Shown in pieces: positions 12,998 through 60,952 of a DNA stretch of 64,000 nucleotides. Numbering within the stretch: position 1 is the stretch's first letter; every line of letters begins with the position of its first letter. Made by a program: the position numbers and the translations under genes. Source of the DNA: an uncultured Gemmatimonadales bacterium (lineage in GTDB: Bacteria; Gemmatimonadota; Gemmatimonadetes; Gemmatimonadales; Gemmatimonadaceae); contig CAWKNZ010000007.1 in the NCBI GenBank assembly GCA_963851265.1, positions 320,001 to 384,000 on the forward strand, given 5' to 3'. Under the pieces are notes generated by a model. That model saw only the letters and a list, made by a program, of their open reading frames with translations. It was not told the DNA's origin and ran no database searches.

Positions 12998-14353
12998 CTA
13001 CTGGAAGTCGACGGTCAGCCCGGGCTGCAGCACCGGCGTGAGCCAGCGCGCGTCCCAGTTGGCCATGCGCACGCAGCCGTGCGACATCGTGTAGCCGACG
13101 TCTTCGGGGCTCGGCGTGCCGTGCAGGCCGACGTGCGGCCGCGAGAGCTGCGCCCAGAGCACGCCGACCGGAGAGTTGGGGCCGGCCGGCAGCAGGGCGT
13201 TGGGCCCGGCGCTCCGGTCCTCGCCGAGCACGACGGGGTCGTAGCGGTAGTGTGGATACGGCGTCGTGCTCACCACGTGGAGTCGGCCCGTCGGCGACGG
13301 GAGCGACGTGGAGCCGACCGTCGCCGGCAGCCAGAAGCGCGTCGCTCCGCGCGCGTCGAGGCCGCGGATGGAGCCCTCGCGCTTGTCGACGACGAGGCGC
13401 GCGACCGCGGGTGCCGCGCCGCGCTCGACGTTGGGCACGACGAGCCGCGTACCGACCGGGGCGCGTGCAACGTTGACGTCGGGGTTGAGGCGCTGGATCA
13501 CGTCGGTGGTCGCGTGGAAGCGCTCGCCGAGCATCGCGAGCATCGACGTGTAGCAGAGGCAGCTCGCCTTGGCCTTCGCGTACATGCCGTTCGGCACGGG
13601 GCGGTACGGCCCACGGACGTCGGCGGCCGTGACCACGTACTCCGTGACCGGCGCGCGAGGTCCGGCGATCCGCTCCAGGCGCGCAACGACGTCGGCGTCG
13701 GCGCTGTCTCCCATCGGAAGGCGCGCCGCGCCGCGGAACGCGCGGATCGCGAAGACCGTGTTCTCGTTCCACACGCCGCTGACCGCGCCCGGGCTGAACC
13801 GGGCGACGTCGAGCAACACCTGCAGGTGCAGCACGGCGCCGCCGCTGCCGCCGCTCACCGTTTCGGTCAGCGGAGCGGTCACGTCCTCGCGCGCGAGGGC
13901 CGTGGTGAGACGGCCCGCGTAGTTCGGCGCGCCCGCTACGTTAGGCGCGGCGGTGACGGCCGGCGGCGCCGGCGGGGGCGCGGGAACCGTCGGTGGCCCG
14001 ATCGGGACGGCACCGGGCACGATGTCGCTGCCGGCGGTGTCCGCCATCGCGCGCGGTGGCGGAGCCGCCGCGTCGAGCGCGGTCGGCGCGAGCGAGTCGA
14101 GCACCGGCGTCGGCGCCGCGCTCGCGCGACCCGTCCGGGCGCCCTTGCGACCGATCGGGCGGGCCGAGGGGCCCAGAGCCGCGCGGGGCGTCGCCTGCGC
14201 GCCCACGTCCGGGGCCGCGGCGAACGCGCTCGCGATGACCAGGGTGACGGCTGCCCGGCGCCACGCCGACGTGCGCGACGTCGCGCCTGCGGACGCGACC
14301 GGCGTCGTGCGAACAATCAGCCCGAACGGCATCGGGCGGCGGCGGTGATGCAT
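12998..14353 (-). CDS. L,D-transpeptidase (YkuD) with peptidoglycan-binding and LysM-like segments (alternative start 14332)
   Basis: GPNSPVG, GLHGT, SHGCVRMANWD; LQVLLDVARFSPGAVSG PG-binding-like region; signal peptide. Confidence 0.9.
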   Translation of the reverse strand: MHHRRRPMPFGLIVRTTPVASAGATSRTSAWRRAAVTLVIASAFAAAPDVGAQATPRAALGPSARPIGRKGARTGRASAAPTPVLDSLAPTALDAAAPPPRAMADTAGSDIVPGAVPIGPPTVPAPPPAPPAVTAAPNVAGAPNYAGRLTTALAREDVTAPLTETVSGGSGGAVLHLQVLLDVARFSPGAVSGVWNENTVFAIRAFRGAARLPMGDSADADVVARLERIAGPRAPVTEYVVTAADVRGPYRPVPNGMYAKAKASCLCYTSMLAMLGERFHATTDVIQRLNPDVNVARAPVGTRLVVPNVERGAAPAVARLVVDKREGSIRGLDARGATRFWLPATVGSTSLPSPTGRLHVVSTTPYPHYRYDPVVLGEDRSAGPNALLPAGPNSPVGVLWAQLSRPHVGLHGTPSPEDVGYTMSHGCVRMANWDARWLTPVLQPGLTVDFQ

Positions 14354-14477
14354 GCAACTCCTCGTCGGACGTACCAGACTCAAGCGTGTCGTCCGCGGTC
14401 GCGGCGGCGATTGCCACGGGCGGGAGTCGGAACATGGCAGCGGCCAAGCCACATCGCGAGTGCCTTCGTCGGAATCG

Positions 14478-15650
14478 TCACGATTCGTTTCGACTGGCCG
14501 GGTCCGGTGCGGTGGTTCCCGCCCCGGTCCCGGGCTCCCCGGCGAGGGCGGCCGGCAGCTCGCGCGCGCTTCCCGGGGCCGCGACGAGCACCGTCTCGCG
14601 CCCCGAGAAGGCGAGCTGCACGTGCTCGGCCCGCAGACGCTCCAGCAGGGCCAAATTGATGCGCTGCTGGATATCCATGTAGAGGTTGTAGTCGGCCGAC
14701 GTGACGTAGTACACCGTTTCGACGACGAGTGCCGCGTCGGTGATCGCCGAGAAGTTCGAGCGGTCGAGGCGCGTCTGCGGAATGTCCGTGACGATCCCGC
14801 GCAGCACGTCGGGTACCTTCGCGACGAGGTCCGGGCTCGTCCCCGGGTCGAGCGCGATCTGGAACGACACACGCCGCTCGCTCTGCCGCTGGAAGTTGCG
14901 GATCCGCGCCTTCAGCAGCTCCGCGTTGGCGATCACGATCTGCTCGCCCGAGAGCGACCGGATGCGCGTGGTCTTCAGGCCGACGTTCTCGACCGTTCCC
15001 TGGTACTGATCGACGACGATGTAGTCGCCGACGACGAACGGCTTGTCGAGCGCGATCGCCAGCGAGGCCAGCAGGTCACCGAGGGTGCTCTGGACCGCGA
15101 GCGCGACCGCCACGCCCGCGACGCCGAGCCCGGTGATGAGTGCGGTGACGTTGATCCCGAGCGCGTCGAGCGCGAGCAGGATCAGCACCACCCACAACGT
15201 CATCCGCGCGATGATGCCGAGCAGGTTGAGCGACGTGATCGCCGCCTTGTCGTGCTCGACGCGGTTGGCGCGAGCGCGCGCGAGCCAGAACGCGACCGCG
15301 CCGTTCCCCCAGCTGACGAGCTGGAGGTAGAACGCGATGCGTGCCAACACGTCGACGCGGTGATCGTAGCGCTCCGACAGGTCGAGCCCCGCGCGCGCGA
15401 TCGCCACGGCGATGACGGCGAGAAACAGTATCCGCGTGCGCCGGATCGCCCCGAGCGCGAGGTCGTCGACCTCGGTGGGCGTGCGCGGCGCGCTCACCGC
15501 GAGGCGGCGGATCAGCTCGCGGCGGACGAGCACGAGCACCGCCAGCGCGACGACGAAGATGGCCGCCGCGGTCAACCACGCGCTGAGAGAGTTGCCGAAG
15601 TAGATCGCGTCGAGCACGCCGTCGACGCGCGAGACCGCCCGCGCCCTCAC
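14478..15650 (-). CDS. MscS family mechanosensitive channel
   Basis: LGVAGVAVALAVQ, DKPFVVGDYI, GLKTTRIRSLSGE. Confidence 0.92.
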   Translation of the reverse strand: MRARAVSRVDGVLDAIYFGNSLSAWLTAAAIFVVALAVLVLVRRELIRRLAVSAPRTPTEVDDLALGAIRRTRILFLAVIAVAIARAGLDLSERYDHRVDVLARIAFYLQLVSWGNGAVAFWLARARANRVEHDKAAITSLNLLGIIARMTLWVVLILLALDALGINVTALITGLGVAGVAVALAVQSTLGDLLASLAIALDKPFVVGDYIVVDQYQGTVENVGLKTTRIRSLSGEQIVIANAELLKARIRNFQRQSERRVSFQIALDPGTSPDLVAKVPDVLRGIVTDIPQTRLDRSNFSAITDAALVVETVYYVTSADYNLYMDIQQRINLALLERLRAEHVQLAFSGRETVLVAAPGSARELPAALAGEPGTGAGTTAPDPASRNES

Positions 15651-15687
15651 GGGGCGGCCATGCCGCGCCCGCTCGCCCCGCGCCTGC

Positions 15688-24591: not shown

Positions 24592-27432
24592 ATGACTGCG
24601 ACCGCGATCACCAGCGTGTTCAACGACGCGTACATCGCCGAGGTCTTCGAGGCGTACCGCCAAGACCCGGCCTCCGTCGACGCTTCCTGGCGCCAGTTCT
24701 TCGGCATGGCGGAGGCGATGTCCGGGCTCGTCCAGGCGGGTGCGGCCGCGCCCGCGCCCGGCGCCACCGACCCGGATCTGCTGCGCAAGGCGGGCGCGGC
24801 CGCGGCGCTCGTGCACGCGATCCGCGAGAACGGCCACCTCGCGGTCGCCCTCGATCCGTTAGGCAGCGCGCCGCCCGGCGCGCGCGAGTTGACGCCCGAG
24901 TTCCACGGGATCGTGGAGGCCGACCTGGCCGGCGTGCCCGCGGCGGCGATCGGCTTCGCCGACGGGCGCTTCGCGACGGCCGCCGACGTGGTCGCGATGC
25001 TGCGGCGCCGGTACTCGGGCGCGCTCGGGATCGAGTACTCGCACCTGACGACGGACGTCGAGCGCGAGTGGTTCCGGACGACGCTTCGCGAGGAGCGACT
25101 CACGGCGCCGCTGTCCGACGACGAGAAGCGGGCGATGCTCGAGCGGCTGACCGAGGTCGACGGGCTCGAGCGATTCCTGGGCTTCGCGTTCCAGGGCAAG
25201 AAGCGCTTCTCGATCGAGGGCACCGACGCGCTCGTGCCGATGCTGGACGAGGCGATCACGCAGGGGGCGGCGCGCGGCGCGCGCGAGATCGCTATCGGGA
25301 TGGCGCATCGCGGGCGGCTCAACGTGCTCGTGCACGTGATGGGCAAGCCGTACGAGGCGCTGTTCGCCGAGTTCGAGGGGCGCCACGCCGATCCGGCGAG
25401 CGACACCGAGACGGGCGACGTGAAGTACCACATGGGGTACGACGGGCGCCGGACGGTGGCCGGGCGCGAGGTGGCGGTGACGCTCGCGCCCAACCCCAGC
25501 CACCTCGAGTTCGTCGGCGCGGTCATCGAGGGAGAGGCGCGGGCGCGGCAGCGCGTGGAGGGCGCGCCCTGGGAGCGCGACGAGTCGCGCGTGCTGCCGA
25601 TCGCGGTGCACGGCGACGCGGCGTTCATGGGCGAGGGCGTCGTGGCCGAATCGCTCAACATGTACCGGCTGCGCGGGTACCGCGTGGGCGGCACGCTGCA
25701 CATCATCACCAACAACCAGGTCGGCTTCACGACCGACCCGATCGACTCGCGCTCGACGCACTACGCGAGCGACCTCGCGAAGGGGTTCGACATCCCGGTG
25801 CTGCACGTCAACGGCGACGACGCCGAGGCGTGCGTGATCGCGGTGCGGCTCGCGACCGCCTACCGCGCCGCCTTCGCGAAGGACGTGCTGATCGACCTCG
25901 TCGGGTACCGGCGCTGGGGGCACAACGAGACCGACGAGCCCGCGTTCACGCAGCCGATGTTGTACGACGCGATCCGCGCGCACCCGACGCCGCGCCAGGT
26001 GTGGGGCGCGCGACTGGTACGCGACGGCGTGCTCGCGGCGGCCGACGTGGAGCGCGTCGACCGCGAGGTGCGCGCGCGGTTCGAGGCGGCGTACGAGCGC
26101 ACGAAGCGGGGCGCGGGCATCGGGGAGGCGCACGCCGCGGCCTCCAACGGCACGGCGACCCACGGCGAGGAGCGCAACGGCGCGGAGAGCAACGGCGCAC
26201 ACGCGGTCGCCACCGCGATCCCCGCCGACCGGCTCGTCGCGTTGCAGACCGAGCTGCTGACGTACCCCGACGGCTTCCAGCCGCACCCGAAGCTCGCGAA
26301 GATCCTCCAGCGCCGCGGCGACGCGTTAGGCGACCGGGGCGGGATCGAGTGGGGTCAGGCCGAGCAGCTCGCGTTCGCGTCGCTGGTGACCGAGGGCGTG
26401 AGCGTACGCCTGACCGGGCAGGACGCGGAGCGCGGCACGTTCGGCCACCGGAACGCGGTGCTGCACGACCCGCGCGACGGGCGGACCTACACTCCGCTCG
26501 CCAACCTCCGGGAACGGCGTGGCGCGTTCGAGGTCTACAACTCGCCGCTCACCGAGACGGCGGTGATGGCGTTCGACTACGGCTTCTCGGTCGCCGCGCC
26601 CGACGCCCTGACGCTCTGGGAAGGGCAATACGGGGACTTCGTCAACGTCGCGCAGACGATCATCGACCAGTTTCTCGTCGCCGACCGCGCGAAGTGGGGG
26701 CAGGATTCCGGGCTCGTGCTGCTCCTGCCACACGGCTACGAGGGTGGCGGCCCGGAGCACTCCTCGGCGCGACTCGAGCGGTTCCTGCAACTCGCGGCGG
26801 AGGGAAACATGACCGTCGCGTACCCGGGCACGCCCGCGCAGTACTTCCACGTCCTGCGGGCGCAGGCGCACCGCGCGTCGCGGCGGCCGCTCGTCCTCAT
26901 GCAGCCCAAGTCGCTGCTCCGACTGCCGACGGCCGCGTCGCGACTCGCGGAGCTGAGCGAGGGCGCGTGGCAGCCCGTGGTCGACCACGGCGCGCTCGAC
27001 GGGCGCGACGCCGGCGCGGTCCGACGTGTGGTGCTGTGCACGGCAAAGACGTTCTACGACCTCACCCAGCAGGAAGTACCGTCGGCGGTGGCAGTGGTAC
27101 GCGTCGACCAGCTCTATCCGTTCCCGGACGCGGAGCTGCGGACGGTCCTCGCGCGGTACGCCAACGCGCGTGAGGTGGTGTGGGCGCAGGAGGAGCCGCA
27201 GAACATGGGCGCGTGGGGGTTCGCCGCGCCGCGGCTCACGGCGGCGCTGTCGGGCAGGGCGCGGCTGCGCTACACGGGTCGTCCGGAGCGGGCGAGTCCG
27301 GCCGAAGGGTACGAGTCGGCGCACAAGGCCGAGCAAGCGCGGATAGTGGCCGAGGCGCTCGCCGTACCGCAGGAGGCGGTCGACGGCGAGGCCGTCTCCT
27401 CTCCGATCGAGGTCGAGGCGGCGAGCGGCTGA
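24592..27432 (+). CDS. sucA: 2-oxoglutarate dehydrogenase E1 component
   Basis: GKKRFSIEG, GMAHRGRLN, GDVKYH, NPSHLE, HGDAAF, GQDAERGTF, PEHSSARLERFLQL. Confidence 0.96.
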   Translation: MTATAITSVFNDAYIAEVFEAYRQDPASVDASWRQFFGMAEAMSGLVQAGAAAPAPGATDPDLLRKAGAAAALVHAIRENGHLAVALDPLGSAPPGARELTPEFHGIVEADLAGVPAAAIGFADGRFATAADVVAMLRRRYSGALGIEYSHLTTDVEREWFRTTLREERLTAPLSDDEKRAMLERLTEVDGLERFLGFAFQGKKRFSIEGTDALVPMLDEAITQGAARGAREIAIGMAHRGRLNVLVHVMGKPYEALFAEFEGRHADPASDTETGDVKYHMGYDGRRTVAGREVAVTLAPNPSHLEFVGAVIEGEARARQRVEGAPWERDESRVLPIAVHGDAAFMGEGVVAESLNMYRLRGYRVGGTLHIITNNQVGFTTDPIDSRSTHYASDLAKGFDIPVLHVNGDDAEACVIAVRLATAYRAAFAKDVLIDLVGYRRWGHNETDEPAFTQPMLYDAIRAHPTPRQVWGARLVRDGVLAAADVERVDREVRARFEAAYERTKRGAGIGEAHAAASNGTATHGEERNGAESNGAHAVATAIPADRLVALQTELLTYPDGFQPHPKLAKILQRRGDALGDRGGIEWGQAEQLAFASLVTEGVSVRLTGQDAERGTFGHRNAVLHDPRDGRTYTPLANLRERRGAFEVYNSPLTETAVMAFDYGFSVAAPDALTLWEGQYGDFVNVAQTIIDQFLVADRAKWGQDSGLVLLLPHGYEGGGPEHSSARLERFLQLAAEGNMTVAYPGTPAQYFHVLRAQAHRASRRPLVLMQPKSLLRLPTAASRLAELSEGAWQPVVDHGALDGRDAGAVRRVVLCTAKTFYDLTQQEVPSAVAVVRVDQLYPFPDAELRTVLARYANAREVVWAQEEPQNMGAWGFAAPRLTAALSGRARLRYTGRPERASPAEGYESAHKAEQARIVAEALAVPQEAVDGEAVSSPIEVEAASG

Positions 27433-27700: not shown

Positions 27701-30448
27701 ATGACCTGTTTCTCTCTCGCTCGGGCGGTCCGGCATCGACGCGGACTCCTCGCCGCCGCGGCCGGCGTGGTCGTGGCGGCGCCGACGGTGCGCGCGCAAA
27801 CGTCCACGGCGTATGAGCCGCGCGGGGCGGCGGAGCTGTCCCAGCTCGTCGACGGGCTCGGCATGACCGCGCGGGTGCTGGTGATCGGCGCGCACCCCGA
27901 CGACGAGGACACGCGCCTGATCGCGTACCTCGCGCGGGGGCGGCACGCGGAGACGGCGTACCTGTCGCTCACGCGCGGCGACGGCGGGCAGAACCTGATC
28001 GGCAACGAACTCGGCGAGGCGTTAGGCGCGATCCGGACCGAGGAGCTGCTCGCCGCGCGGCGGATCGACGGCGGGCACCAGTACTTCACGCGGGCATTCG
28101 ACTTCGGGTTTTCGAAGACGGCGGAGGAGACGTTCCGGCACTGGCCGCGCGACACGGTGCTGGGCGACGTGGTGCGCGTGGTGCGCGCGTTCCGGCCGCA
28201 GGTCGTCATCGCGATCTTCTCGGGCACGCCGGCCGACGGACACGGACACCACCAGGCGAGCGGGATCCTCGCGCGCGAGGCGTACGACGCGGCGGGCGAC
28301 ACGGTGCGGTTCCCGGCGGCGCAGTTCGGGCCCGCGTGGTCGGTCGGGAAGTTCTACCGGAACACGAGCTACCGCGGCGGCGAAACGGCGACGCTGCGGT
28401 ACAACGCCGGGGCGTACGACCCGGTGTTAGGCAGGAGCTACGCGCAGGTCGCCGCGATCAGCCGGAGCCAACACAAGTCCCAGGGGCAGGGCGGCCTGGA
28501 GCGGAAGGGCGTGTCGATCGTGAGCATGCGGCGCGAGGCGACGCGCGTCAACGAGGGCACGCCCGCGAACGCCGAGCGCGACCTGTTCGACGGAATCGAC
28601 ACGACGGTGTTCCGTGGACAGGCGCTCTCGGCGCCGGACCGTCCGCGCGCCCGCGTCGACGCGCTCGCGGCGGCGATCGAGGAGGTCCAACGCACGCTGG
28701 ACCTCCGCCGCCCCGAGCGCGTCCTCCCCGCGCTCCTGCGCGCCCGCGCCGACGCGGCCGCACTCAACGTCTCCCGGCCGGCGGCCGGTCCGCGTCCGAG
28801 CGACGGCCCGGGTTACGACGACGCGCCGCAGCAGGTGCCCGGACGCATCGACCGCGCGATCGTGCTCGCTTCGGGGTTGGCCGCGGAGGTCGAGATGTCG
28901 CGCGAGGTCGTCGCCGCCGGCGACAGCGTGCCGCTCACGGTCGCGGTCTACAACCGCGGACGTCAGCCGATCGCACTGACCGGGTTGACCTTCGGCGGCT
29001 GGTCGCACGGCTTTGGACGCAGCGGCCCCGGCGTGTTCGGCGTCTCGGGCTACCCGATCATCCTGCCGGATAGTTCGTTGCGAATCGCCATGAAGGCGTC
29101 CGCGGCGGGGCCGACGGGCGCGGGCGACCGCCCGTCGTACGCGTACACGCAGCCGGGCTGGCTCCTCGGCGGCCGAAACGGCGACTTCTATCGCGACCCG
29201 CTGTCGTTCTCGCAAACCGACGCCACGTTCAACGGACAGGTACTCAACGCGGCCGCCGTGCTCGTGAGTTTTGCGATCGCGCCCGCGGAAGGTGCGTCGG
29301 CACTGCGGACCGATGCCATCGTCACGACGCTCGTCCCGGCGGTGTTCCGCGAGGTGGATCCGGTCCGCGGCGAGGTCGACCGGCGCGTCGCGCTGGCCCC
29401 CGCACTCTCCGTTACGCTCGACCGCGCGGTCGAGTACGCTCGCGCCGACGTTCCACTCGATCGCGTCGTCACCGTGCACCTGCGGTCGGCGTCGACTGCC
29501 GCGCGCACCGCGACCGTCCGCCTGGCGCTCCCGGCCGGACTGACGGCTGACTCCGCGGCGCGCACGGTCACGCTCCCTGGATACGACGCGCGGGCCGCGG
29601 TCGACTTCCGCGTACGCGGCACGCTCCGCCCCGGCCGCGTCGTGGTGCGGGCCTCGGCCGAGTCGAACGGCGACCGGTTCGCGACCGGCTACCAACTCCT
29701 CGACTACGACCACATCCGCGCGCAGCGCCTGTACCGCCCGGCCGAGACGGCGATCGAGGCCGTCGACGTCGCGCTCCCGGCGCACGCGACCGTGGCCTAC
29801 GTGCCGGGCGTGGGCGACAACGTCGCGCCGACGCTCGCCGACCTCGGCATCCCGGTCACGGTACTCGACTCGACCGCGTTAGGCGCCGGCGACCTCTCGA
29901 AGTACACGCACGTCGTGATCGGCCCGCGCGCCTACGAGAGCAACGCCGCGCTCGCCGCCAACAACGGCCGCTTGATGGACTGGGTGGCCCGCGGCGGCAC
30001 GATGGTCGTCCAGTACGGGCAGTACGAGATGACGCGCCCGGGCGTGATGCCGTACCCGATCACGCTCGGGAGACCGGCGCAGCGCGTGACGATCGAGGAG
30101 GCGCCGGTGACGGTGCTCGACCCGGCGGCGGGGGTGCTCGGAGTGCCCAACCGCATCGGCGCGGCGGACTGGCGGGGGTGGGTACAGGAACGGTCGACCT
30201 ACATGCCCGAGACCGCCGACCCGCGCTACCGCACGGCGATCGCGATCCACGACCCGGGCGAGGCGCCAAACGCCAACGGCATCCTCCTCGCGCCCGTGGG
30301 GCGCGGGACGTACGTGTACGTCACGCTCGCCCTCTTCCGCCAGCTGCCGGCGGGGGTGCCGGGCGCGGCGCGCCTGATGGCAAACCTGCTCGCGGCACGC
30401 GCGCCGGCGGTGAATGCGGAGGCGACGCGCCCGGCGACCGGGCGCTGA
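27701..30448 (+). CDS. Secreted PIG-L/LmbE family deacetylase with C-terminal Ig-like and GATase-like regions
   Basis: AHPDDED, RTEELLAARRIDG, DFGFSK, HGHHQ, SRSQHKSQG; signal peptide. Confidence 0.9.
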   Translation: MTCFSLARAVRHRRGLLAAAAGVVVAAPTVRAQTSTAYEPRGAAELSQLVDGLGMTARVLVIGAHPDDEDTRLIAYLARGRHAETAYLSLTRGDGGQNLIGNELGEALGAIRTEELLAARRIDGGHQYFTRAFDFGFSKTAEETFRHWPRDTVLGDVVRVVRAFRPQVVIAIFSGTPADGHGHHQASGILAREAYDAAGDTVRFPAAQFGPAWSVGKFYRNTSYRGGETATLRYNAGAYDPVLGRSYAQVAAISRSQHKSQGQGGLERKGVSIVSMRREATRVNEGTPANAERDLFDGIDTTVFRGQALSAPDRPRARVDALAAAIEEVQRTLDLRRPERVLPALLRARADAAALNVSRPAAGPRPSDGPGYDDAPQQVPGRIDRAIVLASGLAAEVEMSREVVAAGDSVPLTVAVYNRGRQPIALTGLTFGGWSHGFGRSGPGVFGVSGYPIILPDSSLRIAMKASAAGPTGAGDRPSYAYTQPGWLLGGRNGDFYRDPLSFSQTDATFNGQVLNAAAVLVSFAIAPAEGASALRTDAIVTTLVPAVFREVDPVRGEVDRRVALAPALSVTLDRAVEYARADVPLDRVVTVHLRSASTAARTATVRLALPAGLTADSAARTVTLPGYDARAAVDFRVRGTLRPGRVVVRASAESNGDRFATGYQLLDYDHIRAQRLYRPAETAIEAVDVALPAHATVAYVPGVGDNVAPTLADLGIPVTVLDSTALGAGDLSKYTHVVIGPRAYESNAALAANNGRLMDWVARGGTMVVQYGQYEMTRPGVMPYPITLGRPAQRVTIEEAPVTVLDPAAGVLGVPNRIGAADWRGWVQERSTYMPETADPRYRTAIAIHDPGEAPNANGILLAPVGRGTYVYVTLALFRQLPAGVPGAARLMANLLAARAPAVNAEATRPATGR

Positions 30449-33940: not shown

Positions 33941-34327
33941 ATGTCGGTCCGCGGTTCCGCACTCCGCTGGCTCGCCGGCGCGCACGGCGTGCGCGACGCC
34001 GACATCTTCACCTCGCGCCTCTACCCGCCCGAGCAGTCGTGGACGGGGCGCGCGGCGTGGTGGGTGCAGGTGCCCGTGCACCGCCTGCATGCGTTAGGCG
34101 AGGGCGCGGTGCACCTCGTGTGCGAGGCGAGGCCGGGCGGGCGCGACTTCCACTACCTCCGCGTACCGGGCGCGTACCTGCGCGACCACCTCGCCGACCT
34201 CGACGCCGTGGACGACGGGCGCACGATCAGCCTCTTCCTGTCGGCCGAACCCGACGCGCGATTCCGCGACGAGCGCGGGCCCGGGCGGCTGGAGTTCGCG
34301 CGGTTCGCAGTAGCCCCCGCGACGTAG
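33941..34327 (+). CDS. Hypothetical protein
   Basis: 128-aa ORF with globular composition, 18 bp after ndh stop. Confidence 0.6.
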   Translation: MSVRGSALRWLAGAHGVRDADIFTSRLYPPEQSWTGRAAWWVQVPVHRLHALGEGAVHLVCEARPGGRDFHYLRVPGAYLRDHLADLDAVDDGRTISLFLSAEPDARFRDERGPGRLEFARFAVAPAT

Positions 34328-38906: not shown

Positions 38907-38954
38907 TCACCTGGCCGGAGGACGTTAGGCGACCGCGGCGCGTGTGGCCGGCGC

Positions 38955-40520: not shown

Positions 40521-40601
40521 GCGACCAAGATACCCCGCCGCGCGTCACCCCGGCGGACGTCGGCGCGACGGCGCAGACGTTAGGCGCCCCGGGACGTGCC
40601 G

Positions 40602-44120: not shown

Positions 44121-45452
44121 ATGTCCAACCCCAACCGCCACGACCGCGTCCAGTACGGCGCTCCGGGGCGCCGCGTCGCGATCGTCGCGGGGCTGCGTAC
44201 TCCGTTCGCCAGGGCGGGGACGGCCCTCGCGCGCCTCTCCTCTACGGAAATGGGCCGTCACGTCGTCGCCGAGCTGCTCGCGCGCGCCGAACTCGACCCG
44301 GCCGAGGTCCAGGGAATCGTCTTCGGCACCGTCGTGCCGAGCGTCACCGAGCCGAACATCGCGCGCGAGATCTCGCTCCTGCCGCAGCTGCCGCGCGGTG
44401 TGCAGAGCTTCACGGTGAGCCGCGCCTGCGCCTCCGCCAATCAGGCGATCACCGACGCGGCCGACCAGATCGTGCTCGGACACCTCGACTGCGTCGTCGC
44501 CGGTGGGGCGGAGTCGCTGTCGCAGGTGCCGGTGCTGCACTCGCGGCGAATGAGCGACGCACTCGTCGCGTCGAGCAGGGCCAAGACGCTTCCGGCGCGC
44601 GCGCGCACGCTCGCGGGCATCCGGCCCAAGGACCTCGTGCCGGTGACCCCGGCCATCGCGGAGCCGAGCACCGGCGAGACCATGGGGCAGAGCGCGGAGA
44701 AGATGGCGAAGCTGAACGGCATCTCGCGCGACGAGCAGGACGCGTGGGCGCTGCGCTCGCACCGGCTCGCCGCGGCGGGCACCGCCGACGGACGGCTCGC
44801 GGCCGAGATCGCGCCGGCGTTCCTGCCCGGCGCGGACGGCGGCGAGCCGGTCGCGCTCGACCGCGACAACGGCGTGCGCGCCGACACGTCGCTGCAGCAG
44901 CTCGCCAAGCTCGCGCCCGTGTTCGACCGGGCGTACGGCACCGTGACGGCCGGTAACAGCTCGCCGCTCACGGACGGCGCGAGCGCGGTGCTGCTCATGC
45001 GAGAGGACAAGGCGCGTGCGTTAGGCTATGCGCCGCTCGCCTACGTGCGCAGCTACGCCTACGCCGCGCTCGACCCCGGCGACGAGTTGCTGCAGGGGCC
45101 GGCGCTCGCGATGCCCGTCGCGCTCGCCCGCGCCGGGGCCGTCGCGCGCGACGTGGGACTCGTCGAGATCCACGAGGCGTTCGCGGCGCAGGTGCTCTGC
45201 AACCTCAAGGCGTTCGCATCACGCGCGTGGGCCGAGCGGGCCGGCTTCGCCGAGCCCGTGGGGGAGCTCGACCGCGACCGCATCAACGTGATGGGCGGGT
45301 CGATCGCGCTGGGCCATCCCTTCGGGGCGACCGGCGGGCGCGTGTTGACGACGCTCTGCCGCGAGCTCGCCCGCCGCGACGCCGAGCTCGGGCTCCTGAG
45401 CGTGTGCGCGGCCGGCGGGATGGGTCACGTGATGGTCGTGGAGCGGGCGTGA
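44121..45452 (+). CDS. fadI: Acetyl-CoA C-acyltransferase (thiolase)
   Basis: RTPFAR, SRACAS, NSSPLTDGAS, HEAFAAQ, GGSIALGHPFGATG, CAAGG. Confidence 0.92.
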   Translation: MSNPNRHDRVQYGAPGRRVAIVAGLRTPFARAGTALARLSSTEMGRHVVAELLARAELDPAEVQGIVFGTVVPSVTEPNIAREISLLPQLPRGVQSFTVSRACASANQAITDAADQIVLGHLDCVVAGGAESLSQVPVLHSRRMSDALVASSRAKTLPARARTLAGIRPKDLVPVTPAIAEPSTGETMGQSAEKMAKLNGISRDEQDAWALRSHRLAAAGTADGRLAAEIAPAFLPGADGGEPVALDRDNGVRADTSLQQLAKLAPVFDRAYGTVTAGNSSPLTDGASAVLLMREDKARALGYAPLAYVRSYAYAALDPGDELLQGPALAMPVALARAGAVARDVGLVEIHEAFAAQVLCNLKAFASRAWAERAGFAEPVGELDRDRINVMGGSIALGHPFGATGGRVLTTLCRELARRDAELGLLSVCAAGGMGHVMVVERA

Positions 45453-51439: not shown

Positions 51440-53989
51440 ATGTCACAGCACGTCGCGGCGCCGCGCGCCGCGTGTTCATCCGCGGTCCGTTCCCGTTCGA
51501 CCACGACGCGCGCGGCCGCGACGCTCGCCCTCGGCATAGGCTCCGCTGCGGGTCTCGCCGCGCCCGCCCGGGGCGCCGCGGCGCAGACGTCCGCCGCGCC
51601 GGCGCCCGTCGCGACCGCGGACCCGTCGCGCCTAACGGTCGAGCGGATCTTCGGCCGCGGGGAGTTCGCGGTCGGCGGCGCGCCCGGGCTGCAGTGGTTG
51701 CGCGACGGGCGCGCCTACGTGGAGGTGCGACCGGCCGCGGGCGGCGTCGACATCGTGCGCGTCGACGCGGCAACCGGCGCGGCGACGGTGCTCGTGCCGG
51801 CCGGCGCGCTGCGCGACGAGGCGGGGCGCGCGATCGTCGTCGAGGACCTGCAGCTGTCGCCCGACGAGCGCAAGGCGCTGCTGTTCCACAACTCGGTCCG
51901 CGTGTGGCGGACCAACACCCGCGGGACCTTCCACGTCGTCGACCTCGACACGCGACGCGTCACCCCGATCGCCACCGTGACCACGCCCGGAAAGCCGTCG
52001 GCCGCCGCCGCGAACGCGCCGAGCACGGCGGGCGGCGGCGCGGCCAGCTCGGGCATCCGCGTGCGGATCACCGCCGGGCGACGCGACACGGTCGGCGGGC
52101 AGGCGTTGGGCCAGCGCACCGCCGGGGTGCCCGCCGGTGCGCCGAGCTTCATCGGCCGTGGGCTGGCGAGCGGCGCGGTCGACGCCGACCTCCAGATGTT
52201 CGCCAAGTTCTCGCCCGACTCGCGGTCGGTCGCGTTCGTGCGGGGCAACAATCTGTGGGTGACCGACCTCGCGACCGGCCGCGCGACCCGCCTGACGTAC
52301 GACGGCTCGGACGACGTGATCAACGGCACCACCGACTGGGTGTACGAGGAGGAGCTCGGGCTACGCGACGCGTTCCGCTGGAGCCCCGACTCGCGGCGGA
52401 TCGCGTACTGGCGCTTCGACCAGACGGCCGTGCCTGCGTACCCGATCAACGACGAGACCGACGGCCAGTACCCGACGGTGAGTGTGCTGCGCTACCCGAA
52501 GGCCGGTGCGCCGAACTCGCGCGTGAAGGTCGGCGTCGTCGCGGCCGCGGGCGGCGGCCCCACGCGGTGGCTCGCGGTGGGCGCCGACACCGGCCAGTAC
52601 GTGCCGCAGATGGAGTGGCTCGGCACGGACTCGGTCGCCGTGATCCGCATGCCGCGGCGCCAGAACCGGCTCGACGTGCTGCTGGCGAGCGCGACGACCG
52701 GTGGCGTGCGCGAGGTCGTGAGCGACGTGGATTCCGCGTACGTCGACGTCGAAGGGAGCCCGGTGACGTGGATCGACGGCGGGCGGCGGTTCCTGCTCCG
52801 CAGCGACCGCACCGGGTGGCGCGGCTTCCACCTGTACGACCGCAGCGGGCGCTTCGTGCGGCAGGTCACGCCCGACGGCGCGGACTATCTCGAGGTCGCC
52901 GGCGTCGATTCCGCGCGCGGGTTCGCGTACGTGAGCGCGGCCGCGCCGACGCCCACGCAACGCAACCTGTACCGGTGCGCGATCGCGCCCGCGTCGAACG
53001 CTGCCCCCGCGTGCGCGCGGCTCACGCCGGCCGACGGCACGCACGCCGTCGAGATCGCGCCGGGCAACACGTACGCGATCGACACCTACAGCACCGCGGC
53101 GCGGCCGCCCGTCGCGTCGATGCTCTCGCTGGCGGCGGGGGGCGAGGCGTCGGTCGCGCTGCGCCCCGCGCGCGTGCTCGAGGACAACGCGGCGGTAGCG
53201 TCGCGGCTGGCCGCACTGGGCATCAGCGCGCCGCAGTTCTTCCGCGTCCCGACGCCCGACGGCACGCTGCTGGATGCCTACCGCATCGTGCCGGCTCGCT
53301 TCGACAGCGCCGCGCGGCACCCGGTGCTGATGTACGTCTACGGCGGGCCCGCGGCGCCACAGGTGAGCGACGCGTGGGGCGGCTCGCGGCTGATGTGGCA
53401 CCAGATGCTGGCGCAGCAGGGCTACGTCGTGGTGGTCGTCGACAACCGCGGCGCGGCCTGGCGCGGGCGCGCGTTCCGCAAGGGGACGCAGGGGCGGCTC
53501 GGCGTGCAGGAGTCGCAGGACCAGATCGACGCGGCGCGCTGGGTGGCGCGGCAGTCGTGGGCCGACCCCGCGCGCGTGGGGCTGTGGGGGTGGAGCTACG
53601 GCGGCTACATGACCGCGCTCACGCTCGCGCGCGGCGGCAGCGTGTTCAAGGCGGGCATCGCGGTCGCGCCGGTCGTCGACTGGCGCTTCTACGATTCGAT
53701 CTACACGGAGCGTTACATGTCGACGCCGCAAGCGAACCCGAACGGCTACCAGCTCAGCGCGGTCGCGTCGTACGTCGGCAACATGGCCGCGCGCCTGCTG
53801 CTCGTGCACGGCACCGGCGACGACAACGTGCACCCGCAGAACGCGCTCGTCCTCGCACAGGCGCTCGAGAACGCCAACAAGCCGTTCACGATGCTGCTGT
53901 ACCCCAACAAGACGCACAGCATCAGCGGCGGGCGCACGCAGGTGCACCTCTTCGGCTCGCTCACCCGCTTCGTTCTCGACAATCTGTGA
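51440..53989 (+). CDS. S9B dipeptidyl-peptidase IV family peptidase
   Basis: DWVYEEE, YPKAG, GWSYGG, DDNVH, KTH triad. Confidence 0.94.
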   Translation: MSQHVAAPRAACSSAVRSRSTTTRAAATLALGIGSAAGLAAPARGAAAQTSAAPAPVATADPSRLTVERIFGRGEFAVGGAPGLQWLRDGRAYVEVRPAAGGVDIVRVDAATGAATVLVPAGALRDEAGRAIVVEDLQLSPDERKALLFHNSVRVWRTNTRGTFHVVDLDTRRVTPIATVTTPGKPSAAAANAPSTAGGGAASSGIRVRITAGRRDTVGGQALGQRTAGVPAGAPSFIGRGLASGAVDADLQMFAKFSPDSRSVAFVRGNNLWVTDLATGRATRLTYDGSDDVINGTTDWVYEEELGLRDAFRWSPDSRRIAYWRFDQTAVPAYPINDETDGQYPTVSVLRYPKAGAPNSRVKVGVVAAAGGGPTRWLAVGADTGQYVPQMEWLGTDSVAVIRMPRRQNRLDVLLASATTGGVREVVSDVDSAYVDVEGSPVTWIDGGRRFLLRSDRTGWRGFHLYDRSGRFVRQVTPDGADYLEVAGVDSARGFAYVSAAAPTPTQRNLYRCAIAPASNAAPACARLTPADGTHAVEIAPGNTYAIDTYSTAARPPVASMLSLAAGGEASVALRPARVLEDNAAVASRLAALGISAPQFFRVPTPDGTLLDAYRIVPARFDSAARHPVLMYVYGGPAAPQVSDAWGGSRLMWHQMLAQQGYVVVVVDNRGAAWRGRAFRKGTQGRLGVQESQDQIDAARWVARQSWADPARVGLWGWSYGGYMTALTLARGGSVFKAGIAVAPVVDWRFYDSIYTERYMSTPQANPNGYQLSAVASYVGNMAARLLLVHGTGDDNVHPQNALVLAQALENANKPFTMLLYPNKTHSISGGRTQVHLFGSLTRFVLDNL

Positions 53990-55737
53990 GGTACGCCGCG
54001 CGCTGGACCGCGGCGGCCGGCCTCGCGATGGGCGCCTGTGCCGGGCGCGCGCGCCCGGGCGTCGCCCCCGGCGCGGCGCCAGGCGGGGCGCCGCCGGAGC
54101 AGGCGGCTGCGGCGCGCGTCCTCGCGGCGCGGGCGCGCTACGCCCCGCGCCCGCTCACGCGCGCCGAACGGAGCGGGTACGCCGAAACGTCGCGCTACGC
54201 CGACGTGGTCGCGTTCGTCGACTCCCTGGCCGCGCTCGCGCCCGCGGTGCTGCGCGTCGGCAGCATGGGGACGACGGGCGAGGGGCGCGAGATCCCGGTG
54301 GTGGTCGCGTCGCGCCCGGCGGTCGCGACGCCCGACGACGCGCGGCGCCTCGGCCGTCCGGTGGTGTACGTGCAGGCCAACATCCACGCCGGCGAGGTGG
54401 AGGGGAAGGAGGCGCTGCAGATGCTGCTGCGCGACCTCGCGCTCGCGCCGGCGCCTAACGTGCTCGACTCGCTCGTCCTCGTCGCCGTCCCGATCTACAA
54501 CGCCGACGGCAACGAGCGCGTGCGCGACCAGTCGATCAACCGTACCGAACAGAACGGCCCCGCGCTCGTGGGGCAGCGCCCGAACGCGGCCGGGCTCGAC
54601 CTCAACCGCGACTACATCAAGGCGGAGGCGCCCGAGACGCGCGCGGCGCTCGCGCTCATCAACCGATGGGACCCTGACGCGTTCGTCGACCTGCACACGA
54701 CCGACGGCTCGTACCACGGCTACGCGCTCACCTGGAGTCCGTCGCTCCATCCGTCGGCCCCGCTGGCCCCGTTCGCGCGGGACACCCTGCTGCCCCGCGT
54801 GGCCGAGCGGCTGCAGGCGCGCTGGGGGATTCCCACGTTCCCGTACGGCAACTTCGCCGAGGAGTACGGGGCCGACGTGAACGCCGACACGACCAAGCGG
54901 GGGTGGTACACGTACGACAGCCGGGCACGGTTCGGCACCAACTATTACGGGCTGCGCGGCCGCCTCTCGGTGCTGAGCGAGGCGTTCTCGCACGACCCGT
55001 TCGAGCGGCGCGTGCGGGCGACGTACGCATTCGTGGCGGAATTGCTCTCGGCCCTCGCCGGCAGCGAGACGCTCGCGCGGACGCGCGCCGGAGGCACAGG
55101 GGGCGGTGCGGTGGCGTTGCGGACGCACCTCACGCCCACGCCGCGGCGCGGCCCAGTGCTCGCCGAAGATCTCGAGCGCGCGCCGGACTCGGTGCGAACG
55201 CAGCCCGGGGTACCGCGCGGGCTGCGGCGGACGGGGCGCGTGCGGAGCCTCGAGTTGCCCATCTACGATCGGTTCGTGGCGACGCGCACCGCGAATCTGT
55301 CTGGGGGCGGGTGGGCGTTCAGCGCCGACGTGCCCGGGGCGGCGCAGGCCGCGGCACTGCTCCGACGCCACGGAATCACGGTCGAACAGGTCGCGCGCCC
55401 GCTGGCCCTGAGGACGCGCGTGTTCCGCATCGATTCCGTGGTGACGGCGACGCGGGCGTTCCAGGGGCATCACGAGGTGCGCGTCGAGGGCGCGTGGCGC
55501 GACGAGACGGGCGAGATGCCCGCGCGAAGCTACGTCGTGCCCGCGCAGGCGCGCATGCTGCTGGCCGCGGCGCTGCTCGAGCCCGAGGGCGACGACGGGC
55601 TGGTGACGTGGAACGTCTGGAACGACGCGCTACGTGCGGGGGGCGATTTCCCGGTCGTACGCATACGGGATCCGAGCGTTGGTCACGGAATGCTCGCGCC
55701 GCGGATCGATTCGGTGTCCGGGCCCGCGCGCCGCTGA
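53986..55737 (+). CDS. M14 family zinc carboxypeptidase-like lipoprotein
   Basis: GTGA overlap with DPP IV; MGAC lipobox-like; IHAGEVEGKE, DLNRD, DLHTT. Confidence 0.88.
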   Translation: MRYAARWTAAAGLAMGACAGRARPGVAPGAAPGGAPPEQAAAARVLAARARYAPRPLTRAERSGYAETSRYADVVAFVDSLAALAPAVLRVGSMGTTGEGREIPVVVASRPAVATPDDARRLGRPVVYVQANIHAGEVEGKEALQMLLRDLALAPAPNVLDSLVLVAVPIYNADGNERVRDQSINRTEQNGPALVGQRPNAAGLDLNRDYIKAEAPETRAALALINRWDPDAFVDLHTTDGSYHGYALTWSPSLHPSAPLAPFARDTLLPRVAERLQARWGIPTFPYGNFAEEYGADVNADTTKRGWYTYDSRARFGTNYYGLRGRLSVLSEAFSHDPFERRVRATYAFVAELLSALAGSETLARTRAGGTGGGAVALRTHLTPTPRRGPVLAEDLERAPDSVRTQPGVPRGLRRTGRVRSLELPIYDRFVATRTANLSGGGWAFSADVPGAAQAAALLRRHGITVEQVARPLALRTRVFRIDSVVTATRAFQGHHEVRVEGAWRDETGEMPARSYVVPAQARMLLAAALLEPEGDDGLVTWNVWNDALRAGGDFPVVRIRDPSVGHGMLAPRIDSVSGPARR

Positions 55738-56185: not shown

Positions 56186-56193
56186 CCGTCGCG

Positions 56194-57275: not shown

Positions 57276-58328
57276 ATGCTCCGCAGCGCCCTCCTGTACC
57301 TCAGCAACCAGCAACAGGTCTTCGACTTCGTCCGCCACAACGGCCTCGCGAAGAAGCTTGCGTCGCGCTTCGTCGCCGGCGAGGACGTCGAGCCCGCCCT
57401 CGACGCCGTCGGCGCGCTCAACGCGAAGCGCATCACCGCCTCGCTCGACCTGCTCGGCGAGAGCGTGACCAACGAGGCCGAGGCGCGCGAAGCGGGGCGG
57501 CAGTACGTGCACCTGCTCGACCGCATCCGCGATCGCGCGCTCGACGCGAACGTCAGCCTGAAGCTGACCGCGATGGGCCTCGACATCTCCGAGGAGCTCT
57601 GCATCGAGGTCCTCGGCGCCGTGCTCGGCCGCGCGCGCGACTACGGCACGTTCGTCCGCCTCGACATGGAGTCGAGCGCCTACACCGAGCGCACGCTCCG
57701 GCTGTTCTACGACCGCCTCTACCCGGCGTACCCGGAGAACGTCGGAATCGTGCTCCAGAGCTACCTGTACCGCACCGACCAGGACGCGGCCGACGCGGCG
57801 CGCGCGGGCGCGCGCGTCCGCGTCTGCAAGGGCGCGTACAAGGAGCCGCCGTCGGTCGCGTACCCCGAGAAGGCCGACGTCGACGCGAGCTTCGTGCGCG
57901 CGATGCACACGCTGATGCGCGACGGGCGCTACCCGGGTCTCGCCACGCACGACGAGGCGATCATCGCGGAGGCGAAGCGGTTCGCGCGCGCCGAGGGGAT
58001 CGCGCCGGACCGCTACGAGTTCCAGATGCTCTACGGCGTCCGCCGCGACCTGCAGGAGCAACTCGTGCGCGACGGGTACCGGCTGCGCGTGTACGTGCCG
58101 TTCGGCACGTCGTGGTACCCGTACCTGATGCGCCGCCTCGCGGAGCGCCCGGCGAACCTGATGTTCATGACGGGCAACGTGCTGAAGGAGGCGGTCGCCG
58201 GCGGCCGCGGGGCGAACGGGACGCACGGCGCCAACGGCGGAGGCCTCACGAGCGCGGGCGTGACGGGCGCCGGCGCGCGGCGCGACGCCGGCGCCGACGT
58301 CGCCGGCCCGGGCGCGGACCGTCGTTAG
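57276..58328 (+). CDS. Monofunctional proline dehydrogenase
   Basis: RFVAGE, DLLGE, SLKLT, RLDME, KGAY, ATHD, FQMLYG, YVPFG, YLMRRLAERPAN. Confidence 0.93.
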   Translation: MLRSALLYLSNQQQVFDFVRHNGLAKKLASRFVAGEDVEPALDAVGALNAKRITASLDLLGESVTNEAEAREAGRQYVHLLDRIRDRALDANVSLKLTAMGLDISEELCIEVLGAVLGRARDYGTFVRLDMESSAYTERTLRLFYDRLYPAYPENVGIVLQSYLYRTDQDAADAARAGARVRVCKGAYKEPPSVAYPEKADVDASFVRAMHTLMRDGRYPGLATHDEAIIAEAKRFARAEGIAPDRYEFQMLYGVRRDLQEQLVRDGYRLRVYVPFGTSWYPYLMRRLAERPANLMFMTGNVLKEAVAGGRGANGTHGANGGGLTSAGVTGAGARRDAGADVAGPGADRR

Positions 58329-58332
58329 GCGC

Positions 58333-58755: not shown

Positions 58756-59858
58756 CGGCCGACGCGCCCGCTGACCTGGACGCGGTTCCGATTGTCGGCA
58801 CGGTGCTCTCGGGGACCGGCGGGGTGTGGCGCGTGCTCGGCGACGACGGGGCGGTGCGCGAGGCCTCGCTCCGCGGTCGGCTCAAGAAGAGCGGCGAAGG
58901 GCGGCGGGTGGACGGATCGATGCGGCGCGACACGATTGCGGCGGCCGAACGGGTGCTCAAACTCGCGGTCGGCGACCGCGTCGCGATCGAGCCCGACGTG
59001 CGTGCCGGCGGCGGCGCCCAGGGGGCGTGGGCGATCGACGACATCATGCCGCGTCGCAGCAAGCTCGCGCGCCGCGTGCCGGGCGGCGGGTACGGCGAGC
59101 GCGTGGTCGCGGCCAACGTCGACCAGGTGGTCGTGGTCTTCGCGGCCGCCAGGCCCGAACCGCATCCGCGCATGCTCGACCGCTTCCTGCTCGTCGCCGA
59201 GGCCAACGCGCTCGCGGCGCGCGTGGTGATCAACAAGTGCGAGCTCGCCGGCGCGGGGGATTCCGAGCGCGGGGCCGATGCCGTGCGCGCGCGCTTCGCA
59301 GCGTACGAGGCCGCCGGCTACACGGTGCACGCGACGAGCGTGGCCACGGGCTACGGGCTCGGCCCGCTGCGCGACGCCCTCGTCGGCCGCACGTCCGCGC
59401 TCACGGGGCCGAGCGGGGTAGGGAAGTCCTCGCTCATGAACGCGCTGTTCCCGGGGCTCGACCTGCGCGTGGGGGCGATCTCGGAGAGCGTCAACAAGGG
59501 GCGCCACACCACCGTCGGCGCGCTGCTCCACCCGCTCCCCGCGTCGGCCGGGCGCGCGTTAGGCGGCGACCCGGCCGCGGCCGGTGCCGCGGGCCCGGCG
59601 CGCGGGTTCGTCGTCGACACGCCCGGCCTCCGCGAGGTCGGACTCTGGGGGCTGCCGGCCGAACGCCTCGACGCCTGCTTCCCCGAGTTCCGCCCGTACC
59701 TGGGCGAGTGCCGGTTCGCCGACTGCGCGCACGGGGCGGAGCCCGACTGCGCGGTGCGGACGGCGGTCGATCGCGGGCTGGTCAGCTCGGAGCGGTACGA
59801 GAGCTACCGCAAGCTCCGCCAGGAGGCCGTCGAGGGAACCCCGCCCGAGTGGGCGTGA
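58752..59858 (+). CDS. rsgA: Ribosome small subunit-dependent GTPase A
   Basis: Permuted GTPase NKCE, GPSGVGKSS, GRHTT, DTPG; Zn motif CRFADCAHGAEPDC. Confidence 0.94.
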   Translation: MTADAPADLDAVPIVGTVLSGTGGVWRVLGDDGAVREASLRGRLKKSGEGRRVDGSMRRDTIAAAERVLKLAVGDRVAIEPDVRAGGGAQGAWAIDDIMPRRSKLARRVPGGGYGERVVAANVDQVVVVFAAARPEPHPRMLDRFLLVAEANALAARVVINKCELAGAGDSERGADAVRARFAAYEAAGYTVHATSVATGYGLGPLRDALVGRTSALTGPSGVGKSSLMNALFPGLDLRVGAISESVNKGRHTTVGALLHPLPASAGRALGGDPAAAGAAGPARGFVVDTPGLREVGLWGLPAERLDACFPEFRPYLGECRFADCAHGAEPDCAVRTAVDRGLVSSERYESYRKLRQEAVEGTPPEWA

Positions 59859-59905
59859 TACCAGTAGGATCGCGCCCGCCGCACGCCCGTCCCGCGCCCA
59901 GACTC

Positions 59906-60952
59906 ATGCCGACCGCCCGACCGCACGTCCGCCGTCCCGTCCCACACGGCGCGGGTCCGCGCGCCACGTTAGGCGTTTGCGCCGCCGTCTCGCTCGCGGC
60001 GTGCGCGGCCAGGGCCGGCGCGCAGATGTCGGCCGGCATGACCGCGGCGACCGCGACCAGCCAGCTCTGCGAGCGCGCGATGGACGGTACGCGCTTCCCC
60101 GACGCGAAGGCCCGCATGGAGACGATGGCCGCCGACGCGACGTCGAAGGACGCCGCATTCGCCCGCGGGTGCCTGTTCATGGGTGAGGAGCAGTACGACA
60201 AGGCGTCGGCCGCGTTCGAGCGCGCGGTCGCGTCGGACCAGGCGAGCGCGGCGTACCACTTCCAGCTCGGGCAGGCGTACGGCTCGCGCGCGCAACACGT
60301 CAACGTGTTCCGCCAGGCGATCCTCGCGCGCAAGACGAAGGCGGAGTTCGACCGCGCCGTCGCACTCGACCCCGACCTCATCGACGCGCGCGTCGGTCTC
60401 CTCTCGTACTACCTCTACGCGCCGGGCATCGTAGGCGGAAGCCTCGAGAACGCGCGCGCGCAGGCCGCCGAGATCCGCAAGCGGAACGCGTACCGCGGGG
60501 GCGTCGCCTACGTCCAGATCGCCACCCACGAGAAGGACCGCGTGGGCGCCGCTCGCGAGCTGGAAGCGCTCACGCGGGCGTTCCCCGACAGCACCACGCC
60601 GTACGTCGGCCTCGCCACCGGGTACGGCGAGCGCGGGCTCTGGCCCGACGCCTGGGCGGTCGCGGACCGGATGGCCCGCGTGGTGCCCAACGCGCCCGTC
60701 GCGCAGTACCTCGTCGGGCGCCTGGCGGGCGAGTCGGGCCAGCAACTCGACCGAGGCGTGGCGGCGCTCACGCAGTACCTCCAGACGGCGCCGCGCGAGG
60801 GCGACCCGCCGCTCGCGGTGGCCCACTGGCGGCTCGGCGTCGTGTACGAACGTCAGGCGAAGAAGGACGCAGCCCGCTCCGAATACGAGAGCGCACTCCG
60901 CCTCGACCCCAAGCTGAAGAGCGCGCGCGACGCGCTCGACAAGCTGCGCTGA
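59906..60952 (+). CDS. Secreted tetratricopeptide repeat protein
   Basis: Signal peptide; TPR-like helices (YHFQLGQAYG, AHWRLGVVYE, ALRLDP). Confidence 0.82.
   Translation: MPTARPHVRRPVPHGAGPRATLGVCAAVSLAACAARAGAQMSAGMTAATATSQLCERAMDGTRFPDAKARMETMAADATSKDAAFARGCLFMGEEQYDKASAAFERAVASDQASAAYHFQLGQAYGSRAQHVNVFRQAILARKTKAEFDRAVALDPDLIDARVGLLSYYLYAPGIVGGSLENARAQAAEIRKRNAYRGGVAYVQIATHEKDRVGAARELEALTRAFPDSTTPYVGLATGYGERGLWPDAWAVADRMARVVPNAPVAQYLVGRLAGESGQQLDRGVAALTQYLQTAPREGDPPLAVAHWRLGVVYERQAKKDAARSEYESALRLDPKLKSARDALDKLR

Follow-up and report, generated by a model that had tools for sequence, protein, structure and literature searches.

Why does one stretch of DNA from an uncultured Gemmatimonadales bacterium, a soil organism of the family Gemmatimonadaceae, spell the same heptamer, GTTAGGC, 18 times? 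The stretch (the window: 64,000 nucleotides, positions 320,001 to 384,000 of contig CAWKNZ010000007.1, here G000:C7:320001-384000) comes from an assembly, G000, of 4.60 Mb in 12 contigs with 73% G+C. Dinucleotide-preserving shuffles of the window contain the word 2.46 +/- 1.65 times (maximum 8; 18 or more in 0 of 100 shuffles), so that the excess noted in the initial annotation of this DNA is confirmed. In the coding DNA of the window, 14 copies compare with 0.83 +/- 0.87 after synonymous codons are shuffled within genes. The answer that we favor, tentatively, is that GTTAGGC is a tag that biased uptake or transfer of DNA has spread through the genome, much like the DNA uptake sequences (DUS) and uptake signal sequences (USS) of Neisseria and Haemophilus.

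The excess extends over the whole of G000, where GTTAGGC occurs 1762 times (885 copies on the + strand and 877 on the - strand, about one per 2.6 kb) and its family is the top over-represented 7-mer family. Markov models of orders 0 to 3 expect 397, 160, 96 and 126 copies; orders 4 and 5 (1047 and 1722) seem to explain the count because their sub-word tables already contain the word, and the fifth-order null that the initial annotation had proposed as a check must be read in that light. The codon-shuffled null that it had proposed alongside leaves the excess standing genome-wide as it does in the window: coding DNA holds 1307 copies, as compared with 77.3 +/- 10 after synonymous-codon shuffling within genes. 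The codon context that it had predicted is also found, in that 1007 of the 1329 TTA codons in the genome have GGC next and the codon before TTA almost always has G as its last base; a tRNA-Leu with anticodon TAA is present in G000. TTAG tetramers number 2470 in the genome, 71% of them within the word.

All seven positions are sharply specific: common words aside, single-base neighbors number 8-64 copies each (for example, GTTAGCC 36, GTTAGGG 23 and ATTAGGC 14). The base 5' of the word is C in 1396 cases (79%) and T in 243 (14%), the base 3' is G in 54%, A in 22%, C in 19% and T in 5%, and beyond these adjacent bases the flanks of dispersed copies are featureless. The consensus YGTTAGGCV could be a lineage-specific genomic tag, which we suggest with the same reserve as the uptake explanation of which it is part. 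One word a single transition away, GTTGGGC (spelling TTG-GGC), is itself 2.5x enriched and is the commonest one-step orthologous counterpart; it is probably a way-station in the gain and loss of the word.

Genes from our own caller (3741, covering 90% of G000) divide the copies into 998 in the sense frame xxG-TTA-GGC, 205 antisense as CCT-AAC, 77 antisense as CTA-ACx, 24 in the sense frame GTT-AGG and 456 that are intergenic or at a gene edge, and both frames that would make a stop are empty except for 2 copies that are likely gene-call errors. The raw frame counts are uneven because coding opportunity differs between frames: the word spells 1007 of 12862 Leu-Gly pairs (7.8%) and, antisense, 210 of 1911 Pro-Asn pairs (11%). 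It also spells 206 stop codons (124 of 435 TAA and 82 of 749 TAG). Fully intergenic copies number 265, as compared with 25-34 expected from intergenic composition (8-11x). Between genes the word reaches 1.24 copies per kb where the spacer is convergent, 0.57 where it is tandem (skewed to the upstream stop) and 0.38 where it is divergent, with no preferred orientation relative to the flanking genes (79 versus 69). GTTAGGC is therefore a DNA-level word and not a codon signal, as the initial annotation had argued: it occupies all stop-free frames, and antisense, stop and intergenic copies are all frequent.

Three functional readings of single copies were considered on these data and rejected. A promoter or regulatory motif does not fit with divergent spacers having the lowest density. 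A translational signal or rare-codon ramp is at odds with the antisense, stop and intergenic copies, and the first gene decile has the lowest occupancy and not the highest. Off-frame 'ambush' stops, one of which accompanies every genic copy, leave the seven specific positions and the intergenic excess unexplained.

The window shows the same distribution in miniature. All 18 copies reported by the initial annotation (14 on + and 4 on -) were found again, 16 as CGTTAGGC and 2 as TGTTAGGC (28426 and 31371), 14 with G next, and they account for 18 of the 25 TTAG/CTAA tetramers in the window. In a slightly longer form, read on the strand of the word, the copies are CGTTAGGCG except at 24858 (CGTTAGGCA), 28426 (TGTTAGGCA), 31371 (TGTTAGGCG), 37016 (CGTTAGGCC) and 45020 (CGTTAGGCT). 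In-frame TTA-GGC (Leu-Gly) is found at 24858..24864 and 26325..26331 in a 946-amino-acid gene (24592-27432, +; called sucA in the initial annotation), at 28021..28027, 28426..28432 and 29878..29884 in gene 27767-30448 (+), at 34093..34099 in gene 33941-34327 (+), at 37016..37022 in gene 36921-37457 (+), at 45020..45026 in gene 44121-45452 (+) and at 59558..59564 in gene 58752-59858 (+), all on the + strand, and on the - strand at 31371..31377 in gene 30321-32081 (-) and at 34698..34704 in gene 34359-35834 (-). Twelve such copies had been claimed, and 11 stand by the present gene calls; the twelfth (59968..59974, +) lies upstream of the called start at 60026 and is in-frame TTA-GGC only in the longer open reading frame 58826-60952 (+). 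The other assignments were reproduced. Three copies are antisense: 13940..13946 (+) to gene 12998-14353 (-) and 54453..54459 (-) to gene 53986-55737 (+), both reading CCT-AAC (Pro-Asn) there, and 51630..51636 (-) to gene 51404-53989 (+), reading CTA-ACG (Leu-Thr). Two on the + strand are intergenic, namely 38924..38930, between the convergent genes 38001-38906 (+) and 38955-40520 (-), and 40579..40585, intergenic by the present gene calls and flanked by 38955-40520 (-) and 40914-43379 (+). The copy at 58324..58330 (+) supplies, with its own TAG, the stop codon of gene 57276-58328 (+).

Copies avoid one another at short range: gaps of less than 50 bp number 19 (33 expected), of less than 100 bp 26 (66 expected), of less than 200 bp 46 (130 expected) and of less than 500 bp 193 (307 expected). 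Overall, the strand of a copy tracks gene orientation. Polarity relative to replication was evaluated over C2:0.8-1.83 Mb, the stretch in which the peaks of cumulative GC skew and of gene orientation coincide, and none was found there in intergenic copies (28 on the leading strand and 33 on the lagging strand of the inferred replichores). In the same stretch the word spells 7.8% of Leu-Gly pairs in leading genes versus 5.8% in lagging genes, and 6.8% versus 10.7% of Pro-Asn pairs, both differences being non-significant. Inverted pairs of the word are not above chance, with about 6 short ones in G000. Intergenic hairpins of two inverted copies, terminator-like in form, lie at C2:116118-116147, C7:567607-567639, C7:601246-601273, C8:177681-177714 and C2:11211-11230.

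Sites were compared with those of two congeners that are 77-87% identical to G000, namely G004 and G001, over 400 kb of each. The G000 copies are kept in 59% and 55% of cases, which is at the 95th-96th percentile of all 7-mers (32% kept), and the synonymous alternatives are retained at 20-38% overall (GTTGGGC 24-30%, GCTCGGC 37-38%). Where the word is absent its counterpart is mostly GCTCGGC or GTTGGGC (CTC-GGC, TTG-GGC); these are other Leu-Gly spellings, and sites therefore arise by synonymous changes, often two. A three-way alignment of G000, G004 and G001 (203 kb, 209 sites) has the word in all three genomes at 34 sites, in G004 and G001 and not G000 at 30, in G000 and G004 and not G001 at 15, in G000 and G001 and not G004 at 9, and in a single genome at 19 (G000), 41 (G004) and 61 (G001) sites. 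Positions turn over fast and density is kept; by parsimony G000 is a net loser of copies and G004 a net gainer. Another word, CTACTAC/GTAGTAG, is 8.6-10.6x over-represented in these congeners (53-59 copies per 400 kb in G004:C1:2320001-2720000 and G001:C3:1-400000).

Copies are also commoner in native DNA. Occupancy of Leu-Gly pairs by codon-adaptation quintile runs 2.8, 4.2, 6.7, 10.1 and 13.3% (the low quintile may include false gene calls), and density climbs from 0.23 to 0.53 copies per kb as identity between species increases (Spearman 0.32 and 0.36). A lineage-specific drive on DNA that has long been resident would fit with both trends, and both are confounded with gene conservation. Core and accessory DNA, as divided by alignment, do not differ (0.39 versus 0.35 copies per kb).

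Among relatives the word is strikingly patchy. The closest named relatives are all labeled Gemmatimonadaceae (loci with the 946-amino-acid gene, 57-65% identity). A record named as a Gemmatimonadaceae metagenome-assembled genome (L002) has 7 copies in 9.8 kb, and 17 other named Gemmatimonadaceae or Gemmatimonadales loci have 0 or 1. We call a genome rich if its count of the 8-mer form of the word reaches that of the reversed control, and poor otherwise. In a set of 31 relatives, all 5 genomes of the genus have the 8-mer in abundance (727-2415), as do G012 (6360) and G008, G017, G018 and G030 (345-605); the rest have 6-65, well under the reversed control. Across the phylum, 18 of 401 genomes are rich, all in one order (14 of 95 in family f1, 4 of 166 in f2, these from one genus, and 0 of 140 elsewhere); the unpublished genomes G011, G078, G117 and G198, which are all poor, contribute to these tallies solely as single rows. 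Within one genus, G235, G292 and G396 are rich (3479-4141 8-mers) and G288 is poor (66), and this is the sharpest contrast available for finding a gene that reads or writes the word; rich G008 versus poor G006, a sister pair, is a further contrast within a genus. A quick single-gene tree, in which the rows for G013 and G026 are wrongly extracted reading frames and were disregarded, does not unite the rich genera. The word keeps its flank preferences in G012 (63% G+C, 1.37 copies per kb), where position 7 is relaxed (C 284, T 52, G 34, A 20). In two poor relatives (200 kb each) no other abundant word was found, the top ratios being 3-6x. One soil sequencing run contained 0.30 of the sampled words, as contigs only.

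What could keep such a word at constant density while its positions change? We infer a drive by biased uptake, or by other sequence-biased transfer such as packaging, together with a specific receptor. About one copy per 2.6 kb would then be maintained by molecular drive and not by a function of single sites: a surface DNA receptor of the competence apparatus would prefer word-bearing fragments, and word-bearing alleles would then be imported and built into the chromosome at a higher rate than others. Copies would accumulate where the word is cheap (synonymous Leu-Gly, antisense Pro-Asn, stop codons and the 3' spacers of genes), and mutation and codon bias would wear them away. A drive is needed, since site-by-site selection is unlikely to maintain some 1,800 weak, quickly replaced sites made of the rarest codons. 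Biased uptake plus recombination, as for DUS and USS, is the only established drive that favors an arbitrary word (PMC3868556). Nearly every testable population-genomic hallmark of uptake sequences is found here. Uptake genes are present: ComEC in 31 of 31 genomes, ComEA-like HHH_3, a secretin and DprA in 5 of 5 each, and type IV pilin-like genes. These competence genes are not diagnostic.

Several observations weigh against biased uptake. ComEC, ComEA-like, secretin and DprA genes occur equally in poor genomes and so do not discriminate, and no receptor has been identified: two of about 8 pilin-like genes, the ones checked, occur in rich as well as in poor genomes and do not track richness, one of them not being found in the rich genomes G001 and G002. 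Our search of the literature on this phylum yielded no report of natural transformation or of uptake sequences, and full-text searches returned no paper on GTTAGGC as a genomic motif. No dialect series of the kind seen in Neisseriaceae was found, only the relaxed seventh position in one rich genus, and inverted pairs of the neisserial-terminator type are not enriched. At 7-9 bp the word is shorter than the canonical DUS of 12 bp (PMC3868556). Three further features are not predicted by a plain or uniform uptake drive: the same exact word in lineages that are non-monophyletic in the quick tree, the equality of the word with an integron core, and a 45-kb zone without copies around parAB.

The integron connection, absent from the initial annotation, lies in the letters. 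The attC sites that bound every cassette are defined by their cores (R boxes), GTTRRRY and the inverse form RYYYAAC (PMC3053210), and GTTAGGC conforms in spelling to this core of attC and attI. In poor relatives nearly all copies of the word are in cassette arrays, at about 550-bp spacing, on one strand and within classical attC sites. Among 38 attC sites from relatives' arrays, picked by a simple rule, 34 have GTTAGGC as R' and 32 have GCCTAAC as R'', while R' is preceded by C in 38 of 38 and followed by G in 21, C in 8, A in 7 and T in 2. As judged from spelling, the dispersed word thus matches the attC R-box core of the order's integrons, flanks included. This identity is too specific to ignore, GTTAGGC being 1 of about 8,000 strand-paired 7-mers and the order being rich in integrons. 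The arrays in poor relatives (G021:C95, C80 and C43; G019:C3) are long and have very uniform attC sites of about 85-95 nt, and the integrase matches in G021 are fragmentary and under the cut-off. G000 has small cassette arrays of its own (C6:1-3500 and C10:188900-203800), one of them at a contig start and adjoining a split integrase, and about 9 attC-like pairs (an inverse core 90-114 nt upstream of a core), mostly in C6:1-3.5 kb and C10:188-204 kb.

The reader of the word might therefore be the integron integrase or another protein that shares its specificity, the dispersed copies being solitary R-box or attG-like sites for cassette capture, cassette genesis or integrase titration. We consider this unlikely, the agreement of core spelling (PMC3053210) and of flanks with attC R' and the confinement of poor relatives' copies to arrays notwithstanding. 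Integrases over the cut-off are concentrated in the order that holds all rich genomes (152 of its 266 genomes versus 14 of 135 outside), but within the order an integrase is neither sufficient nor needed, since one is present in 12 of the 18 rich genomes and in 140 of the 248 poor ones (poor G117 and G198 among them); none was found in the rich G396, and G288, poor and of the same genus, has two that pass the cut-off and a third just under it. The integrase was accordingly rejected as the determinant of richness, there being no clear association. The sole G000 integron integrase over the cut-off is split (C6:3005-6044, model positions 2-265 and 260-313) by a 2.1-kb insert, a large serine recombinase gene (Resolvase, Recombinase, Zn_ribbon_recom) on the opposite strand. 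Double-stranded sites in the genome (attG) can also receive cassettes from integrases, but GWT is all that such a site requires (preprint 10.1101/2022.09.11.507474). Dispersed copies have neither an inverse core nor an imperfect palindrome of 57-141 bp, and there is no excess of copies at insertion boundaries, only 3 of 84 congener indel boundaries lying within 25 bp of one (alignment ends being imprecise). Insertion at the 57% of copies that lie inside genes would do harm, and known integrase reactions do not write the word into a site. A nucleoid-associated or other chromosome-organizing protein, abundant and binding the word at sites kept by selection on themselves, would suit the seven sharply specific positions and the regular short-range spacing. 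It would also suit a zone of 45 kb without any copy (C1:182876-227962, G+C 0.738, 37 genes including mnmG/gidA, parA, parB and mnmE; the next largest gap is 22 kb), which recalls the site-free zones of nucleoid-occlusion factors. The aligned 38-39 kb in G004 and G001 (77-78% identity) hold 4 copies each, as compared with about 24 expected, but G012 has 98 copies in 80 kb around the same genes, a normal density; no match to a parS consensus was found within 2 mismatches. With only 34 of 209 sites common to three congeners, with selection on each of about 1,800 weak sites unlikely to overcome codon bias, with no candidate protein tracking richness and with a density that follows codon nativeness, which a structural role does not predict, we think a chromosomal protein about as doubtful a cause as the integrase.

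A Chi-like tag, which would tame a helicase-nuclease in break repair or mark self for a defense nuclease, is less plausible still. A density of 1 per 2.6 kb and the word length are Chi-like, the word is the most over-represented one, and genes show the weak, non-significant leading-strand trend given above; against these stand the non-polar intergenic copies (28 versus 33), the use of the rarest codons and not common ones, and the scarcity of partners, RecC being detected in 1 of 31 genomes, not a member of genus g1, and AddB models giving no match over the cut-off in 5 of 5 genomes (addB_alphas 0 of 5, addB_Gpos likewise without a match in 5). The explanation to which we give the least credence is that the word is a by-product of a bias in mutation or in mismatch repair that depends on sequence context, such as a methylation hotspot or repair of the very-short-patch type. 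The distribution is patchy, as for mobile methyltransferase genes, and the one-step neighbor GTTGGGC is 2.5x enriched; however, the commonest counterpart, GCTCGGC, is two positions away through different kinds of change, the precursors are not depleted (GTCAGGC 605 versus 479-957 expected, GTTGGGC enriched), the genetic code offers no single transition that is synonymous in all three used frames, and sites are retained above background.

Biased uptake and the integron core may also be combined. The word could be an uptake or transfer-bias tag copied from the attC core, with competence tuned to cassette-bearing DNA and the word then spreading through the core genome of lineages that recombine often; we regard this as a conjecture that is more probably wrong than right, of about the standing of the integrase reading. 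It would explain the same spelling in separate lineages of one integron-rich order, and each attC bears the word twice. Chromosomal integrons obtain cassettes from the single-stranded DNA that transformation brings in (PMC12614218), which makes a coupling of transformation to cassette capture plausible. If true, a single DNA word would tie transformation to capture by integrons. The identity with the integron core was unexpected, and it makes this link directly testable.

Of the analogies offered by the initial annotation, the uptake sequence fits best, and Chi and KOPS do not fit. Chi is likewise an asymmetric over-represented 7-8-mer of comparable density; GTTAGGC differs in that neither RecC nor AddB was found, its intergenic copies lack replication skew and its codons are rare. 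KOPS differ in their polarity, since the skew of GTTAGGC tracks gene orientation only and intergenic copies have none. HIP1 is palindromic, whereas GTTAGGC is not, and a modification target predicts no enrichment. The R boxes of attC and attI are identical to the word in spelling and flank preferences, and integrons are common in the order; in contrast to attC, attI and attG sites, the dispersed copies are solitary, lack a palindrome, do not lie at insertion boundaries and are independent of integrase presence.

To our knowledge, only two families, both of them proteobacterial, are established cases of sequence-specific DNA uptake. The USS of Pasteurellaceae is one such uptake sequence system, and the DUS of Neisseriaceae, read by the minor pilin ComP (PMC3868556), is another. 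GTTAGGC differs from DUS and USS in belonging to another phylum, the Gemmatimonadota, with no competence reported in the literature that we searched, in being shorter, with neither a receptor nor a dialect series among sister lineages found, and in having no excess of inverted pairs, being shared by non-monophyletic lineages and equaling an integron core. If it is an uptake tag, then it would be a sign of frequent DNA exchange within lineages of Gemmatimonadota, a major and little-cultured soil phylum, and the word would be a simple genomic marker for that exchange; the contrasts of G235, G292 and G396 with G288 and of G008 with G006 offer a practical route to the reader protein. The likeness to DUS and USS is broad: an exact short word in thousands of copies, about one per 1-3 kb and equal on both strands, placed within genes in every frame that tolerates it, with an enrichment in the spacers at gene 3' ends, restricted to certain lineages, commonest in native and conserved genes, and turning over at a kept density in genomes in which uptake genes are present.

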